From a virus (lineage: Duplodnaviria; Heunggongvirae; Uroviricota; Caudoviricetes), in the IMG/VR virus record IMGVR_UViG_2531839450_000009: a DNA stretch of 30,601 bases; one strand, given 5' to 3'. Under the pieces are notes generated by a model that made no database searches, was not told where the DNA came from, and saw only the letters and a list, made by a program, of their open reading frames with translations. Numbering within the stretch: the stretch's first letter is position 1; each line of letters opens with the position of its first letter. This document shows positions 7,336 to 19,274 of this stretch, one piece after another. The position numbers were made by a program, and so were the translations under genes.

Positions 7336-9596
7336 AAGAGCTGTGCTATGGATCTGTTTGCAGTGGAATTGAAGCCGCGAGTATTGCCTGGGAACCGTTG
7401 GGTATGCGTCCGGCGTGGTTTGCTGAAATCGAGCCTTTTCCATCTGCCGTTCTTGCGCACCGCTGGCCCCATGTCGCCAACCTTGGCGACATGACAAAAC
7501 TTGCCCAAAAAGTCCTGGCTGGGGAAATCGAATCCCCTGATGTGCTCGTCGGGGGAACACCTTGTCAGGCATTCAGTATCGCAGGATTAGGTGGTGGGCT
7601 TGATGATGAGCGTGGCGCGCTAACTTTAAAGTATGTGGAGCTTGCAAATGCAATTGACGACAAACGGGCTGAGTCATTTCTCAAACCAGCCGTTATCGTC
7701 TGGGAAAATGTCCCAGGAGTCTTGTCATCGGCAGATAACGCCTTCGGATGTTTCCTTGCCGGATTGGCTGGAGAAGATGTGCCATTTGAACCAGGTGATC
7801 GACCTGAATCAGGAAAAAGCAACGCGTTCTGGCGGTGGGATGGCAAAACCGGTTGCCATGTTCCAAAGTGGCCGCAGTGTGGTTGTATTTATGGACCGCA
7901 GCGAAAGGTGGCCTGGAGAATCCTTGATGCCCAATACTTCGGAGTGGCACAACGACGCCGACGCGTGTTTGTTGTCGCAAGTGCTCGAACAGACCTCGAT
8001 CCCGCAACGGTACTTTTTGAGTTCGAAGGCGTGCGCCGGAATATTGCGCCGAGCCGAAAAAAGAAGGAAATCGCTTCCGCCATTACTGCAAATGGCGCTG
8101 CAATCAGTGGCGAAAGCCTAAATCCATGCCTACACGCTGGCATGTCCCCCGGTATGAAATCGACGAAAGCCGTAAACGGTTTCAGGATGGCGGCATTTGG
8201 GGAATATATTGACGATGAAACCGCATCGACAGTAAAGGCAAGAGACTTTAAAGATGCCACTGACCTTGCCGTTTTTAGCAGCACTGGAGCAGGTTTTTGG
8301 TCAGAAGGGCATGGTACATTGCGGGCGCGTGAGCAAGAAAGCCATGAGCATCTTGTTACATTGGCTTTTCCTGAGCGTATGAGTGGTACACAACATGCAG
8401 CAACTAAGAATACTTCACCATCTCTAATGGCTCAAAATCCAACTGCTGTTTGCTATGAAGTAAGAAACGAAGAAGTAGCTGTCCGCCGTCTTACCCCTGT
8501 CGAATGTGAGAGACTTCAAGGTTTTCCTGATGGGCATACGTTGATCCCTACGGAAAAGCGTAAAAAAGTTAATTCAGATGAACTGGCATATCTGCACAAT
8601 CACTATCCAGATTTAAGCGAAGAAGAGGCCGCGATGCTTGCAGCTGACGGACCGCGTTACAAAGCGATCGGCAATAGTATGGCAATACCAGTAATGCGCT
8701 GGATTGGCGAGCGGATTACCAGGGCTGCATGTCGGCAGAATGAAGGGCGTGAAACAAAAGAGCGAAAAGTTAAACCAGCGGCAGAATTCGAACGGTCCAT
8801 ATTCAAATGGGCTGGTGGAAAATTTGGTGTTCTGGAACAAATCTTTCGCTATTTGCCAGAAGGGAAGCGCCTGATCGAACCTTTTGTCGGTGGCGGAGCT
8901 GTCTTCACGAATGCCGGATACCAGGAAAATCTGCTAAATGATGTGAATGCTGACCTGATTAACTTTTACAAGACTCTGCAACGCGAGGCGCATTCACTTA
9001 TCACACTGGCGCATCGGTTTTTCCAGGACTACAACACACAGGAAGGATACCTGGCAGTACGGAATGCGTTTAACAAACAAGTCTATGATGATTTACATCG
9101 CGCAGCGGCGTTTTTGTTCCTGAACCGACATTGTTTTAACGGATTGACGCGTTACAACCAGGCCGGTGAGTTCAATGTCGGTTATGGGAAGTATAAAACT
9201 CCGTATTTCCCATTACAGGAGATGGAAGCCTTCCTCGGTGCGGAAGGGTGTTCTGAGTTTGTATGTGGTGATTTTGCAGCGGTGATTGAAGCTGCCGGAG
9301 AAGGAGATGTCATCTTTTGCGATCCGCCGTATGAACCGCTTCCAAATACAGAGGGATTCACGAACTATTCCGGTCATGACTTTAAGTTTGAAGAGCAAAA
9401 ACGCCTGGTGTCTCTGTTGACGGATGCTCATCGTCGAGGTGCAAAGGTTCTCATTACTAACAGTGGCGCGCCAAATATCAGAGAGCTTTATCATGACAGT
9501 GGCTTCAGAGTGGAACCTCTTTTTGCCAGACGTTCTGTGTCTTGTAAGGGGGACACTCGAGGTGTAGCTCATGACGTTTTAGGTATATTGCTCTAA
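7332..9596 (+). CDS. dmt: bifunctional DNA methyltransferase: N-terminal C5-cytosine MTase domain fused to C-terminal Dam-like N6-adenine MTase domain
   Basis: ORF track, 754 aa, GTG start overlapping the hrdC stop. N-terminal half has the catalytic [11 protein letters not shown] and ENV (WENVPGV) motifs of C5 MTases. C-terminal half has the DPPY motif (IFCDPPYEP) and Dam-like FKWAGGK/SAM-binding region. Confidence 0.88.
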
Positions 9597-9603
9597 TAAA
9601 TTT
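9587..9603 (+). promoter_or_regulatory. C1 repressor operator-like 17-mer overlapping the dmt stop codon
   Basis: attgctctaataaattt is a 17/17 match to the recalled C1 operator consensus. Embedded in the 16-bp palindrome ctaataaatttattag, followed by taatat (-10-like). Confidence 0.6.
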
Positions 9604-9619
9604 ATTAGTGTAATATCGC

Positions 9620-9776
9620 CTCAATGAATCGTGATTTATAGAGCGATTTAGCTGTTAGCCGCGACAGGCGCGGCGGTAAGCATGGCTGGGCCTAGTCCTC
9701 CCAGACAAACCACCGAGTTGCCAGGTTGACCATGCGCCTAAGTGGCAACTCCGAAGTGCGTTACGAGCTTCCAGTT
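9620..9776 (+). ncRNA. candidate structured small RNA between the dmt-end operator/promoter and an intrinsic terminator
   Basis: No ORF. Several hairpins (gccgcg..cgcggc; gttgcca..tggcaac enclosing about 19 nt) and ends at a strong terminator. Ends not mapped. Confidence 0.3.
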
Positions 9777-9804
9777 TGCCCATCTTCGGGTGGGCGTTTT
9801 TTTT
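9777..9804 (+). terminator. Rho-independent terminator
   Basis: GC-rich hairpin gcccatc-ttcg-ggtgggc followed by a run of 8 T. Confidence 0.65.
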
Positions 9805-9986
9805 CAGGGTTTTCGTCATGGTTAGCGACTTTGCGGCGGTTTAGAAACTGACCATTAAAGTAAATGCAAACGATGATCTGATGATGGTAGCGGCCTAAGA
9901 AGCCAGACGCCACGGGGTATGAGTCGTCCCCCGTCAAAAAAATCGACCGCAGAGTGTCCCCGTCTGTGTATTAGGGAACGGGGAGG

Positions 9987-10067
9987 CACAACAGGTAAGG
10001 GCGCTGGTGTGATTAACCAGATGAACGAGAAGGGGCCATCTGTTGGTCAGCGTCCTTTCCTGTTGCG
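9987..10067 (+). ncRNA. hairpin element E1 (candidate structured RNA, family of four)
   Basis: cacaacaggtaaggg ... cctttcctgttg form a long closing stem around an internal hairpin ctggtgtgattaaccag. Confidence 0.3.
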
Positions 10068-10269
10068 TTTTCTTTTCAGCGTAACAGCGGTGCTTAACAG
10101 CACTTTGGGTACAGTTCCACGAATTTACGGGTATATCCCGTCATGCTGAAGGCGCTAATCACGCTGGAAGCCAGGGTTGTGCATCCCCTGTTACCGAATT
10201 GCAGCCAGGGCGCGGTGCGCCGAAAAGCATACGGAGGTGGAAGCCCTCGCCGGAGACGTACCCGGCAGG

Positions 10270-10311
10270 TGATGGTGTAGCTCAGCGGTTCGAGTCCGTT
10301 AATCGGCACCA
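10270..10311 (+). pseudogene. tRNA remnant: D-loop-like and T-arm plus 3' acceptor-ACCA, anticodon arm absent (tRNA-Thr-like 3' end)
   Basis: gtgtagctcag fused directly to ggttcgagtccgtt-aatcggc-a-cca. T-stem agcgg/ccgtt pairs with loop TTCGAGT. The 3' end atcggcacca resembles E. coli thrW as I recall. No complementary 5' acceptor strand and no anticodon stem-loop. Confidence 0.4.
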
Positions 10312-10312
10312 G

Positions 10313-10399
10313 CACAACAGGTAAGGGTATTTTGCGACGTCGGAGATCGCCGAGCTTGGCAGAGGGTTCGAATCCCTACGAAGTACCCTTACCGTTGTG
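10313..10399 (+). ncRNA. hairpin element E2 (candidate structured RNA with T-arm-like internal hairpin)
   Basis: 16-bp closing stem cacaacaggtaagggta / tacccttaccgttgtg (one bulge) enclosing gggttcgaatccc. Not a cloverleaf. Confidence 0.3.
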
Positions 10400-10544
10400 A
10401 TGAAGTGCAGCTCTTTGAAGCAACCAGAAGATAAGCATCTGGCTTCACAACATAAACCGCAGGAACGACCAATAAACGGTAGTCCGTATGGAGAACACCC
10501 CGTTGAGGAAGAGGCCTGGCCGGAACCGTAACCGGCACTACAAC

Positions 10545-10626
10545 GTTGAGAACACTGGCGTAACGGGGTCATATCCCAATCTACGAATAAATGTTGCGTT
10601 GCAGCGTGACAACCAGTGTTCTCAAC
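10545..10626 (+). ncRNA. hairpin element E3
   Basis: Perfect 14-bp stem gttgagaacactgg / ccagtgttctcaac enclosing gtaacggggtcatatcccaatctac; tail attgtggtgaatgc shared with E4. Confidence 0.3.
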
Positions 10627-10815
10627 ATTGTGGTGAATGCACAGGCTGATGTGCCGCAACTACAGTAGTGCGCGCTTTGCGGGGCTTGCTACAACCCTGT
10701 GTCGGAGTTCAGCACCGACCATCACAGTTTGATTCTCTGGCATGAGCATAACGCTGAAATAAGTCCAGTCTGGTGCGGCCCGATCACCCGCCGTTAGCTC
10801 CACGAAACGGAGCAC

Positions 10816-10892
10816 GTAACAGGTAAGAGCATTCTCCTGTAACGGGTTCATATCCCAATCTACAGGTCCACCAGGAATGCTCTTTCCGTTGC
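10816..10892 (+). ncRNA. hairpin element E4
   Basis: Imperfect long stem gtaacaggtaagagcattctcctg / caggaatgctctttccgttgc enclosing taacgggttcatatcccaatctac; tail ttgcggtgaatgc. Confidence 0.3.
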
Positions 10893-11042
10893 GGTGAATG
10901 CGGCTAAGCGCACGCGGAACAGTTAAAACAATCCTCCTTAATGGTTAAACATTCCGGCGTTAATTGTTAACTGGTTAACGTCACCGGGAGGCACTCGGCA
11001 CCGCAATCTAATAAATATGTCACTTTTATTGAGGGATAACCA

Positions 11043-11477
11043 ATGTTCGGTAAATTGTTCGGCAAGAAAGTCGCTTCTGCAAAAGTAGAGCTGAAAAAAG
11101 TTGAGAATCGCGATCTGATGGAGGCCATCATCGGTGGCTGTTTGTTGGTGTCTGCCGCTGATGGTGAAATCGAAAAAGAAGAAACAGCGAAACTTGATCA
11201 GCTTGTCCGCTCTAATCCGCGTCTTAGTCATTTTGGTAACGAAATTACTGCAACAATTACCCGCTTTACCGAGCAACTGGAAGCTGGCTTCCGTGTTGGT
11301 CGCATGAATATCCTTCGCGAAATTGAAGATATCAAAAACGATCCAAAAGAAGCGGAAGAAGTATTCGTTAACATGCTGACAATTGCAGAAGCGGACGGTG
11401 AAATCGAGCCAGCAGAACACAAAGTACTGGAAGAAGTAGGCCGTCGTTTAGGTCTTCGTGTGGAAGATTATCTGTAA
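11043..11477 (+). CDS. tciA: TerB-domain protein (tellurite-resistance TerB family)
   Basis: ORF track, 144 aa. Pattern IIGGCLLVSAADGEIEKEE ... MLTIAEADGEIEPAEHKVLEEVGRRLGL, two D-G-E-I repeats typical of TerB. Position upstream of tRNA-Ile and ban matches my memory of P1 tciA. Confidence 0.7.
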   Translation: MFGKLFGKKVASAKVELKKVENRDLMEAIIGGCLLVSAADGEIEKEETAKLDQLVRSNPRLSHFGNEITATITRFTEQLEAGFRVGRMNILREIEDIKNDPKEAEEVFVNMLTIAEADGEIEPAEHKVLEEVGRRLGLRVEDYL

Positions 11478-11751: not shown

Positions 11752-11827
11752 GGCCCTTTAGCTCAGTGGTTAGAGCTGGCGACTCATAATCGCACGGTCA
11801 CCGGTTCAAGTCCGGTAGGGGCCACCA
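11752..11827 (+). tRNA. trnI: tRNA-Ile (anticodon CAU, lysidine type, AUA-decoding); tRNA-Met cannot be excluded from sequence alone
   Basis: Clean cloverleaf: acceptor GGCCCTT/AGGGGCC, D-arm GCTC-AGTGGTTA-GAGC, anticodon loop CTCATAA, T-arm ACCGG-TTCAAGT-CCGGT, encoded CCA. Near-identical to E. coli ileX as I recall. Confidence 0.85.
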
Positions 11828-12113
11828 TATTTGGTTGTAACACGGCGTCTGGCACATGCGTCGTTAGCGGTCTGGTGACGTTAAAAGGGGGGAACCTTGC
11901 CCCTAGCTCAGGCAACGAACCAGGTAGCCGGAATGTGCAAGCCACCGTTTGTTGTTTCTCGGGTAAAGGGATTCACCATCCTGGCGATTCGGTGTGACAG
12001 CCGGGAAGAGTCCGGCGCATTAATCCTGATTTTCTGGTGATGACTCATATCGTTAGGAGTGATTTGAGTATGCCGATTATATCTGACATTCAGCACGCCT
12101 GGGTGGAGTGCTA

Positions 12114-18896: not shown

Positions 18897-19274
18897 TTAC
18901 GCAATGGATAATGTCCCTATTACCTGGCCGTCGTATTGGAGATGGCGAATCATTTCGCGGATCCAGGTGGCAGGTGGGAGTTTTAATTTTTTGCCAACAG
19001 TCATACCCTGAGACTCATCCTCAAGCCCGGCGGCGAGCGTCACAACCCAGCGTAGCTCTGCTATGCCCCACATACGGTAAGCCAGCAAATCCGGGCGATA
19101 TTGCTCATCGGGAAGAACGTAATAAATCGTCAGATTCTTGTCGTTCGATTCACACATAAGCATCACCTCTTTGCGTAGCTCTGCCCTGAGTATTGGATCG
19201 GCTATGTTGCGGTCGTCATACCGCGACAGAGGATATTGCCGGGTGCTTTGGGTTGTAGTGATTGATGTAGCCAT
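18897..19274 (-). CDS. hypothetical protein (125 aa), first gene of the minus-strand operon
   Basis: ORF track; follows the divergent promoter region 19275-19420. Confidence 0.45.
   Translation of the reverse strand: MATSITTTQSTRQYPLSRYDDRNIADPILRAELRKEVMLMCESNDKNLTIYYVLPDEQYRPDLLAYRMWGIAELRWVVTLAAGLEDESQGMTVGKKLKLPPATWIREMIRHLQYDGQVIGTLSIA

Follow-up and report, generated by a model that had tools for sequence, protein, structure and literature searches.

What fills the 'gene-poor' 1.4 kb that separates dmt from tciA in the classic phage P1 and its relatives? We addressed this question in a viral record of the class Caudoviricetes, IMGVR_UViG_2531839450_000009, whose whole analyzed stretch of 30,601 nucleotides (nt) is called the window here; homology and P1 annotation identify it as a segment of a P1-like (Punavirus) phage-plasmid. 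In it, dmt ends at 9596, tciA starts at 11043 and ban starts at 12108, and the roughly 1.4 kb between dmt and tciA are untranslated. An earlier reading of the letters alone (the sequence-only reading) had picked out four related long-stem hairpins in this interval, termed E1 to E4, described them as tRNA-sized and left their function open among processed small RNAs (sRNAs), decoys and attenuators. We find that E1-E4 belong to a large family of RNA hairpins in temperate phages and propose, with somewhat better than even confidence, that they are RNase III processing and stabilizing hairpins acting in cis in the long untranslated leader of the ban operon.

E1-E4 are related hairpins of the transcribed strand

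Folding and shared sequence blocks bore out all four hairpins, each on the + strand. E1 (9987..10067) is a clamp-type long hairpin whose 3' flank is U-rich and is not the GGUGAAU tail of other members. E2 (10313..10399), whose first base lies 1 nt past the CCA of tRNA-Thr, is also of the clamp type, and its interior folds into a three-way junction with a T-arm-like GAGGGUUCGAAUCCCUA hairpin. E3 has a different closing-stem sequence and encloses two inner hairpins, one of which carries the conserved block AACGGGGUCAUAUCCCAAUC; it had been drawn at 10545-10626 with a perfect 14-bp stem, and the hairpin stands, with outer pairs that extend its closing helix to 10538..10633. Directly behind it comes a tail (10632..10656) made of GGUGAAUGC and the small hairpin GCACAGGCUGAUGUGC, which matches the covariance model R1 (see below) and is the same tail that follows most lambdoid members. 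E4 (10815..10893), a clamp-type hairpin with the conserved inner block, is nearest to the lambdoid consensus. Folding and R1 agree on E1, E2 and E4; E3 is supported by folding and compensatory pairs.

On the + strand, the predicted RNA folds have energies of -45.9 (E1), -42.7 (E2), -44.2 (E3) and -35.4 kcal/mol (E4), corresponding to z-scores of -5.8, -5.2, -5.5 and -4.9, and none of 200 shuffled sequences was equally stable. The clamp helices measure 18-23 bp in these folds. For every element the minus strand is 6-13 kcal/mol less stable, because G.U pairs turn into C.A on that strand. Sequence sharing among the elements, as counted in the window, follows the previously noticed pattern: ACAGGTAAG is found three times, solely in E1, E2 and E4 (0.15 copies expected); an exact 16-mer, GCACAACAGGTAAGGG, is common to E1 and E2; the 25-nt block GTAACGGGKTCATATCCCAATCTAC is confined to E3 and E4 (0 expected); and the tail GGTGAATGC lies 3' of both E3 and E4.

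The sequence-only reading could name no RNA family for these hairpins, and checks of the stretch with Rfam and ARAGORN were likewise negative. None of the Rfam 15 families reached its gathering score across 9987-10893 or on the elements in 14 lambdoid loci, and a permissive Rfam scan of E1-E4 returned only microRNA-hairpin noise far under threshold. On the same elements, tRNA models gave no match up to an E-value of 10 and ARAGORN called no tRNA. The resemblance in size to tRNAs proved incidental; only E2 has a T-arm-like hairpin, and interiors across the family span 29-170 nt.

Closing stems change in sequence and remain paired

The covariance model R1 was derived from 70 lambdoid members only, with their interiors trimmed, and the whole window was searched with filters off. 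Its best four matches were, in order, E4 (10811-10903, 54.1 bits, E 8e-11), E2 (33.3 bits, E 4.8e-6), the base and tail of E3 (10617-10656, 26.9 bits, E 1.5e-4) and E1 (22.2 bits, E 1.7e-3), and the next match scored 10.5 bits (E 0.8). Every element scored lower on the minus strand, with 15 bits for E4 and 18.4 bits for E1.

In a covariation set of 45 distinct matches from 65 loci, the clamp was paired in 98.3% of cells and both sides had changed in 10 of its 18 pairs, in line with the earlier suggestion that the stems differ in sequence and stay paired, and with the comparison of homologues proposed as its check. None of 500 shuffles equaled any measure of clamp pairing, and slid registers were at most 58% paired vs 93.5%. 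The closing stems of E3, of E4 and of a 'third type' described below are wholly different in sequence, and all of them pair. An independent MAFFT/RNAalifold run on the loop-block subfamily also yielded compensatory pairs; sequence alignment fails on the divergent stems, so that only the outer and inner helices are recovered.

The hairpins belong to a family spread across temperate phages

Relatives were found by motif scans of viral contigs followed by folding; about one-third of the viral-contig matches to the 15-mer CACAACAGGTAAGGG were chance, hairpin-free matches and were discarded. More than 100 distinct relatives share one architecture, in which a clamp helix encloses a variable interior and is followed by a tail. 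The clamp consensus, CACAAC-A-GG-U-AAGAGCAUUG ... CAGUGCUCUU-U-CC-GUUGUG, forms an imperfect helix of ~20 bp laid out as 6 bp, a bulged purine, 2 bp, a mismatch and ~10 bp. Interiors of 29-170 nt are unrelated between members and mostly form one or two hairpins; these are T-arm-like in several members, namely E2 and those at loci L136, L184, L225 and L189. In the tail, GUGAAUGC leads into a small hairpin (GCGCAGGCUGAUGCGC) or, in its place, a module from a small set of alternatives. The inner block shared by E3 and E4 (AACGGGKUCAUAUCCCAAUC) is also present in the non-P1 'third type', where it sits within an unrelated 20-bp closing stem that is still paired.

Sub-segments of the stretch match unrelated temperate phages, where they occupy non-coding gaps; Enterobacter phage BUCT554, for example, has a copy of E2 (85% identity, 79 bits). 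The element of lambdoid contigs is flanked by the late antiterminator gene Q (four PHROG families) on one side and the holin/endolysin genes on the other, often beginning 8-12 nt past the U-tract of a terminator, which places it in the PR' late leader, a known 'moron insertion site'. In mEp460, it precedes a bona fide DicF (Rfam, 76.7 bits) and an STnc100-like dicB leader by ~100 nt. The conserved 3' arm and tail are found in 854 of 5426 complete E. coli genomes (~16%), where they are unannotated.

Between E2 and E3, a small hairpin module at 10386-10451 (containing GAAGCAACCAGAAGAUAAGCAUCUGGCUUC) has its own distribution. Its identity is 95% to copies in SSU5-like Klebsiella phage-plasmids and ~80% to those in Sashavirus siphophages, and it doubles as an alternative 'tail module' after lambdoid clamp elements.

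Among P1-like relatives, the number of elements varies. Many of them (L009, L035, L038 and others) have an extra element, E2b, 215 nt after E2, which is absent from the window, as is a further member located downstream of tRNA-Ile2 and before ban in three loci (L021 5730-5805, L036 4605-4680, L012 3561-3636). Three P1-like loci (L039, L045 and L014) are recombinants joined in the 25-nt E3/E4 block with 279 bp deleted, and the resulting chimera of the E3 5' and E4 3' parts is unable to form a closing helix. Such gain and loss of elements, seen in E2b and the E3/E4 fusions, is explained by recombination between repeated arms, tails and blocks.

Neither Rfam, RefSeq nor the literature searched describes a family of clamp, variable interior and tail. 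Searches of the literature on the P1 ban operon and transcriptome yielded nothing on the hairpins, and a P1vir delta-hfq transcriptome preprint makes no mention of them. The kind of RNase III site to which we assign E1-E4 is already known; the large multi-copy family in P1-like phage-plasmids, lambdoid leaders both late and early, and other temperate phages is uncatalogued.

A K-12 relative coincides, by RNA length, with an RNase III site

The family model finds two members in Qin, a prophage carried by E. coli K-12 (NC_000913.3), one at 1,649,169-1,649,260 between ydfC and dicF (23.5 bits, E 1.3e-3) and one at 1,641,143-1,641,227 between cspB and essQ in the late operon (24.3 bits; E ~1e-3 for both). 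The mEp460 relative of the Qin element scores 35.2 bits. The Qin element has the bulge and mismatch layout of the family, but all of these scores are modest. According to Ragunathan et al. (2023, bioRxiv 10.1101/2023.04.14.536235), RNase III makes the 5' end of a DicF species of 190 nt, which delta-rnc cells lack; this confirms Faubladier 1990 as cited there. RNase E then gives the 53-nt DicF, and delta-rnc also removes a ydfABC fragment lying upstream. Measured 190 nt from the 3' end of DicF, the RNase III end falls in the CUU-C-CG mismatch region (L306 19246-19251), within the 3' arm of the clamp (19237-19258), and precursor lengths of 182-204 nt all put it in that arm. In the global fold of the precursor, the ydfC-dicF clamp is the dominant long helix. 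In addition, the RNase III table of Gordon et al. (2017) lists a site at 1641188 (essQ-cspB), which falls inside the second K-12 member, and one at 1649470 (dicF-dicB, flagged as known), which falls in the GGUGAAUGC-tail region.

The architecture of the family is also what such a site would call for. An RNase III site requires only a helix of ~20-22 bp, about two turns, according to Altuvia et al. (2018), and this requirement explains a conserved clamp around a free interior. E1-E4 each contain a helix of about this size, at 18-23 bp, in the transcribed strand, and annotation, + strand preference and the lambdoid contexts all place them in sense-oriented untranslated or polycistronic RNA between functional RNA units.

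Proposed function as RNase III processing hairpins

With a mapped RNase III site falling, judged by RNA length, in the K-12 relative, the function that had been left open narrows to RNA-processing hairpins. By analogy, E1-E4 would be cleaved as their K-12 relative is: the clamp helix would be a double-stranded substrate of the host RNase III, and a cut in the helix at or near the 3'-arm mismatch would divide the polycistronic RNA into units, namely an sRNA precursor, tRNAs and the downstream mRNA, with the upstream product keeping a protective hairpin at its end. The structures, family, covariation, strand preference and contexts are results of the present analysis, and the RNase III dependence in K-12 comes from the literature.

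The Qin dicF site is the closest known system. The two have in common a clamp of 6-7 bp, a bulged purine, 2 bp, a mismatch and ~10 bp ending in GUUGUGG, and a location next to a DicF-type sRNA, in untranslated RNA of a prophage early operon under repressor control. They differ in number and setting: Qin carries one copy upstream of dicF, which lacks a directly adjoining GGUGAAU tail, whereas the four copies of P1 (many relatives have five) are interspersed with tRNAs and lie downstream of a DicF-like module; cleavage is documented for Qin only. Related imperfect hairpins or long stems also punctuate polycistronic RNA at the early RNase III sites of phage T7 (R0.3-R1.3) and in ribosomal RNA (rRNA) operons, where the cut leaves upstream products with stabilizing 3' hairpins and frees tRNAs and structured RNAs. 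As in those systems, related hairpins are repeated along one polycistronic transcript. However, there is no sequence similarity to the T7 sites, whose apical loops are short and whose internal loop is conserved; the helix of the P1 family instead encloses a variable, often branched interior of 30-170 nt and has a conserved single-stranded tail 3' of it.

Several points weigh against the RNase III proposal. All cleavage evidence is from K-12, and we infer cleavage of the P1 elements by analogy; moreover, the K-12 scores are low, so that homology between the K-12 members and E1-E4 rests on architecture and on the mEp460 copy, and the K-12 cleavage position was derived from a reported RNA length. 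The sites of Gordon et al. lend weak support because they are low-count (25-26 reads vs 0) and come from a long list, and the probability of a chance overlap with them is ~5%. The covariation alignment was fitted to the model structure, with seeds anchored on the fixed 3' arm. Individual elements are dispensable, since natural E3/E4 chimeras without a closing helix exist. Finally, RNase III alone leaves three features unexplained: the long structured interiors, the conservation of the E3/E4 inner block across three closing stems, and the strong conservation of the single-stranded GGUGAAUGC tail.

These last features leave room for a second reading, which we consider possible and clearly less probable, that the elements are stand-alone small structured RNA genes in which clamp and tail serve as a processing and stability scaffold and the interior is a payload cut out by nucleases. 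Such payloads may be tRNA T-arm mimics, decoys against tRNA-targeting defenses or protein-binding aptamers. This reading is compatible with RNase III cleavage and moves the function to the excised hairpin. It would account for interiors that are structured and extremely diverse within a conserved scaffold, for the T-arm-like hairpins of E2 and the four loci listed above, for the inner block kept in three different scaffolds, and for the recurrence of elements beside phage tRNA genes with highly variable sets. However, the excised species are purely predicted; tRNA and YrlA models go unmatched even at permissive thresholds; the T-loop-like block carries U at the invariant A58 of tRNA; most interiors share nothing, as would unconstrained sequence; and chimeric and deleted variants exist in nature. 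A more specific version, in which clamp and tail form a conserved 'launch pad' from which RNase III/E would excise the interior as a stable small RNA, letting phages express a fast-diversifying set of payloads next to tRNA sets that vary just as much, seems to us a little less probable again; E1-E4 may then be four different payload genes and not just punctuation, for instance for T-arm mimics or decoys against host tRNA-modifying or tRNA-cleaving defense enzymes.

Two sRNA classes were considered as identities of the hairpins and rejected. STnc100/PasD (RF02076) sRNAs occupy the same niche, between Q and the lysis genes or in the dicB leader, and the STnc100 model opens with UGGUGAAU and a small hairpin, which is the E3/E4 tail. 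They differ in being Hfq-bound sRNAs with terminators (Zhu et al. 2026 preprint; Pearl Mizrahi et al., 2021) and in lacking the clamp hairpin: the two experimental PasD loci in E2348/69 are STnc100-like but clamp-free, with only the tail motif in common. The anti-sRNAs AgvB and AsxR of the PR' moron site are too short (51-60 nt) and convergent. The Y RNA YrlA was rejected as well; E2 is superficially like it in having a long basal stem and a branched apical domain with a T-arm-like hairpin, but other family members have no tRNA-like domain, Rfam gave no match, and the P1 annotation places no rsr (Ro60) gene near the window.

If the RNase III proposal holds, the module would set the release of phage tRNAs and of prophage sRNAs (DicF-like and STnc100/PasD-like) from long leaders, and also the stabilization of upstream fragments. 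The hairpins account for the gene-poor stretch of P1, and one recurring RNA module connects the K-12 dicBF operon and the ban leader of P1 with the lambdoid 'moron' site that lies downstream of PR'. About one-sixth of the complete E. coli genomes carry this module, which neither Rfam nor RefSeq annotation includes; a covariance model of the family would better prophage annotation and remove spurious 'hypothetical proteins'.

Alternative explanations at the RNA, DNA and protein levels

An improbable alternative is that the hairpins shield the untranslated 1.4 kb from Rho termination, either passively, by tying up the RNA, or through a BoxA-like Nus-factor site, for expression of tciABC and ban. 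The stretch is indeed long, untranslated and downstream of a strong terminator, and the conserved 3' arm has UGCUCUUU followed by UGUGGUG, which recalls the antitermination boxA (UGCUCUUUAACAA) and the boxC of ribosomal RNA (rrn) operons. In the predicted structures, however, the boxA-like motif is paired within the clamp, whereas NusB/NusE bind single-stranded RNA, and the motif is missing from E1, E2, E3 and the third type. Moreover, lambdoid elements lie in Q-antiterminated RNA, which requires no Nus site, and a passive structure would leave sequence unconserved.

The boxA-like arrangement itself can be seen in the clamp 3' arm, for example at 10875-10896 of the window, where UGCUCUUUCC GUUG(U/C)GGUG combines a boxA-like motif with a GU-rich, boxC-like run; the whole is paired in the predicted structure.

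Even less probable, in our estimate, is a role at the DNA level, with the elements being imperfect inverted repeats, either attC-like sites or insertions resembling miniature inverted-repeat transposable elements, that exchange tRNA or moron cassettes. Conserved ends around a variable center and lengths of 68-176 nt recall integron attC sites, the ends CACAAC...GTTGTG come near RYYYAAC...GTTRRRY (an approximate match only), the neighboring tRNA content is cassette-like and variable, and units are gained and lost (E2b, E3/E4 fusions). Such gain and loss is accounted for by homologous recombination between repeats, though, and we saw no target-site duplications. G.U pairing is preserved on the sense strand only, with the + strand the more stable by 6-13 kcal/mol, and this retention of pairing through sense-strand G.U indicates RNA rather than DNA. 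The Q-lysis and ban-leader flanks examined hold no integrase, and the elements lack the makeup of attC sites.

It is highly unlikely that E2-E4 are nothing more than stretches of plp (10282-10659) and upl (10660-10851), coding genes annotated on the minus strand in P1 (NC_005856). Neither open reading frame (ORF) is interrupted in the window, and all 62 colinear loci keep upl intact. On the other hand, plp has a TTG start and no Shine-Dalgarno sequence, is Cys-rich and has its 3' end antisense to tRNA-Thr. Of 119 related loci, 86 have plp split or partial, and among the 33 colinear loci it is disrupted in 11. The other ORF, upl, has no Shine-Dalgarno sequence either, starts inside E4 and shows six non-synonymous vs one synonymous polymorphism. 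Both genes are unannotated in P7 and in re-annotated P1, a scan of the stretch found no minus-strand promoter-like sites, and the sequences are patchworks of modules that recur in non-coding gaps of unrelated phages. We therefore rejected plp and upl as conserved translated genes. These long-standing P1 gene calls look spurious, and we argue that they are artifacts; the view that the interval holds no convincing ORF is upheld by the same tests.

Opposite-strand 'hypothetical protein' coding sequences over hairpins are present in several records, including plp/upl (window 10282-10851) and QQM14145 in BUCT554 (L303 2471-2722). They are probably systematic gene-caller artifacts arising from long inverted repeats.

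Finally, decayed tRNA genes from a variable phage tRNA array are, despite adjacent tRNA genes, the T-arm of E2 (GGTTCGAATCC) and tRNA decay by deletion in the window, an equally implausible origin, given perfect closing stems of 14-22 bp maintained with compensatory changes, no tRNA model match at E up to 10, a majority of members in tRNA-free contigs with interiors devoid of tRNA-like features, and no intermediates seen that link specific tRNAs to specific elements.

Transcription unit and neighboring features

The hairpins lie downstream of a C1-controlled operator, as had been proposed. The Pban promoter and its bivalent C1 operator, Oban, map to 9586..9616 (+ strand) by homology to features annotated in P1 and P7, and Pban/Oban is presumed to be the start of the transcript that carries E1-E4. 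A simple scan found no other + strand promoter-like site between Pban and tciA.

Shortly downstream, a DicF-precursor-like leader ends in a strong intrinsic terminator (9640..9806, + strand; stem 9777-9796 and T8), as identified from the P1 'dicF-like region' and a terminator scan. The terminator is only ~190 nt past Pban, so that expression of tciABC and ban requires read-through. Visible homology makes ~9650-9740 resemble the K-12 Qin DicF precursor upstream of dicF; the Rfam DicF model has no match to 9640-9806.

The terminal hairpin and terminator of the P1 'dicF-like region' (UCCGAAGUGCGUUACGAGCUUCCAGUUUGCCCAUCUUCGGGUGGGCGUUUUUUUU) differ from those of Qin. The segment 9640-9806 may encode a distinct sRNA.

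At the other end of the stretch, an STnc100-like multi-hairpin leader (10890..11005, + strand) opens with the E4 tail GGUGAAUGC and ends 38 nt before tciA; it was recognized from RF02076, lambdoid matches and K-12 sequence. Its match to RF02076 (43 bits, E 1.4e-7, model positions 31-147) falls short of the gathering score of this 206-nt model (47 bits), and RF02076 does not cover E1-E4. The segment is homologous to the dicB leader of K-12 Qin and mEp460, and its lambdoid matches adjoin dicB; this homology puts tciA in the place held by dicB in lambdoid prophages. More closely, 10885-11005 corresponds to the K-12 dicB leader, whose start is GUGGUGAAUGC. Compared with the K-12 sequence, the P1 leader reads as a mosaic of the Qin region. 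On the favored reading, the order in the C1-controlled ban operon of P1 is Pban, DicF-like sRNA, E1, tRNAs, E2, E3, E4, STnc100-like leader, tciABC, tRNA-Ile2 and ban.

In annotated P1, tRNA-Asn and tRNA-Thr normally lie between E1 and E2. In the window, alignment with P1 trnA and trnT reveals a 41-nt chimeric remnant instead (10271..10311, + strand), in which tRNA-Asn supplies the 5' part (acceptor and D-stem) and tRNA-Thr the T-arm and 3' end; neither ARAGORN nor Rfam calls it. A deletion of ~101 bp across the microhomology TCAGCGGTT, from the Asn D-loop to the Thr T-arm, fused the two genes and explains why the E1-E4 stretch is tRNA-free here. Because one IMG/VR contig (L066) and a colinear Salmonella plasmid (NZ_CP030183) have the same junction, the deletion is a natural variant. 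Family elements often adjoin co-oriented phage tRNA genes, and the tRNA sets of P1-like phages are very variable: Asn-Thr, Arg(UCU)-Thr, Arg-Tyr-Thr with or without Ser, and Asn-Tyr-Thr. The loci with variable sets (L005, L008, L012, L018, L021, L036 and L045) retain the flanking hairpins.

The sole tRNA called in the window by ARAGORN and Rfam is at 11752-11827 and has a CAU anticodon. ARAGORN and some records name it 'Met', whereas the curated P1 annotation has it as an ileX-like tRNA-Ile2, whose anticodon, CAU, decodes Ile once modified to lysidine.

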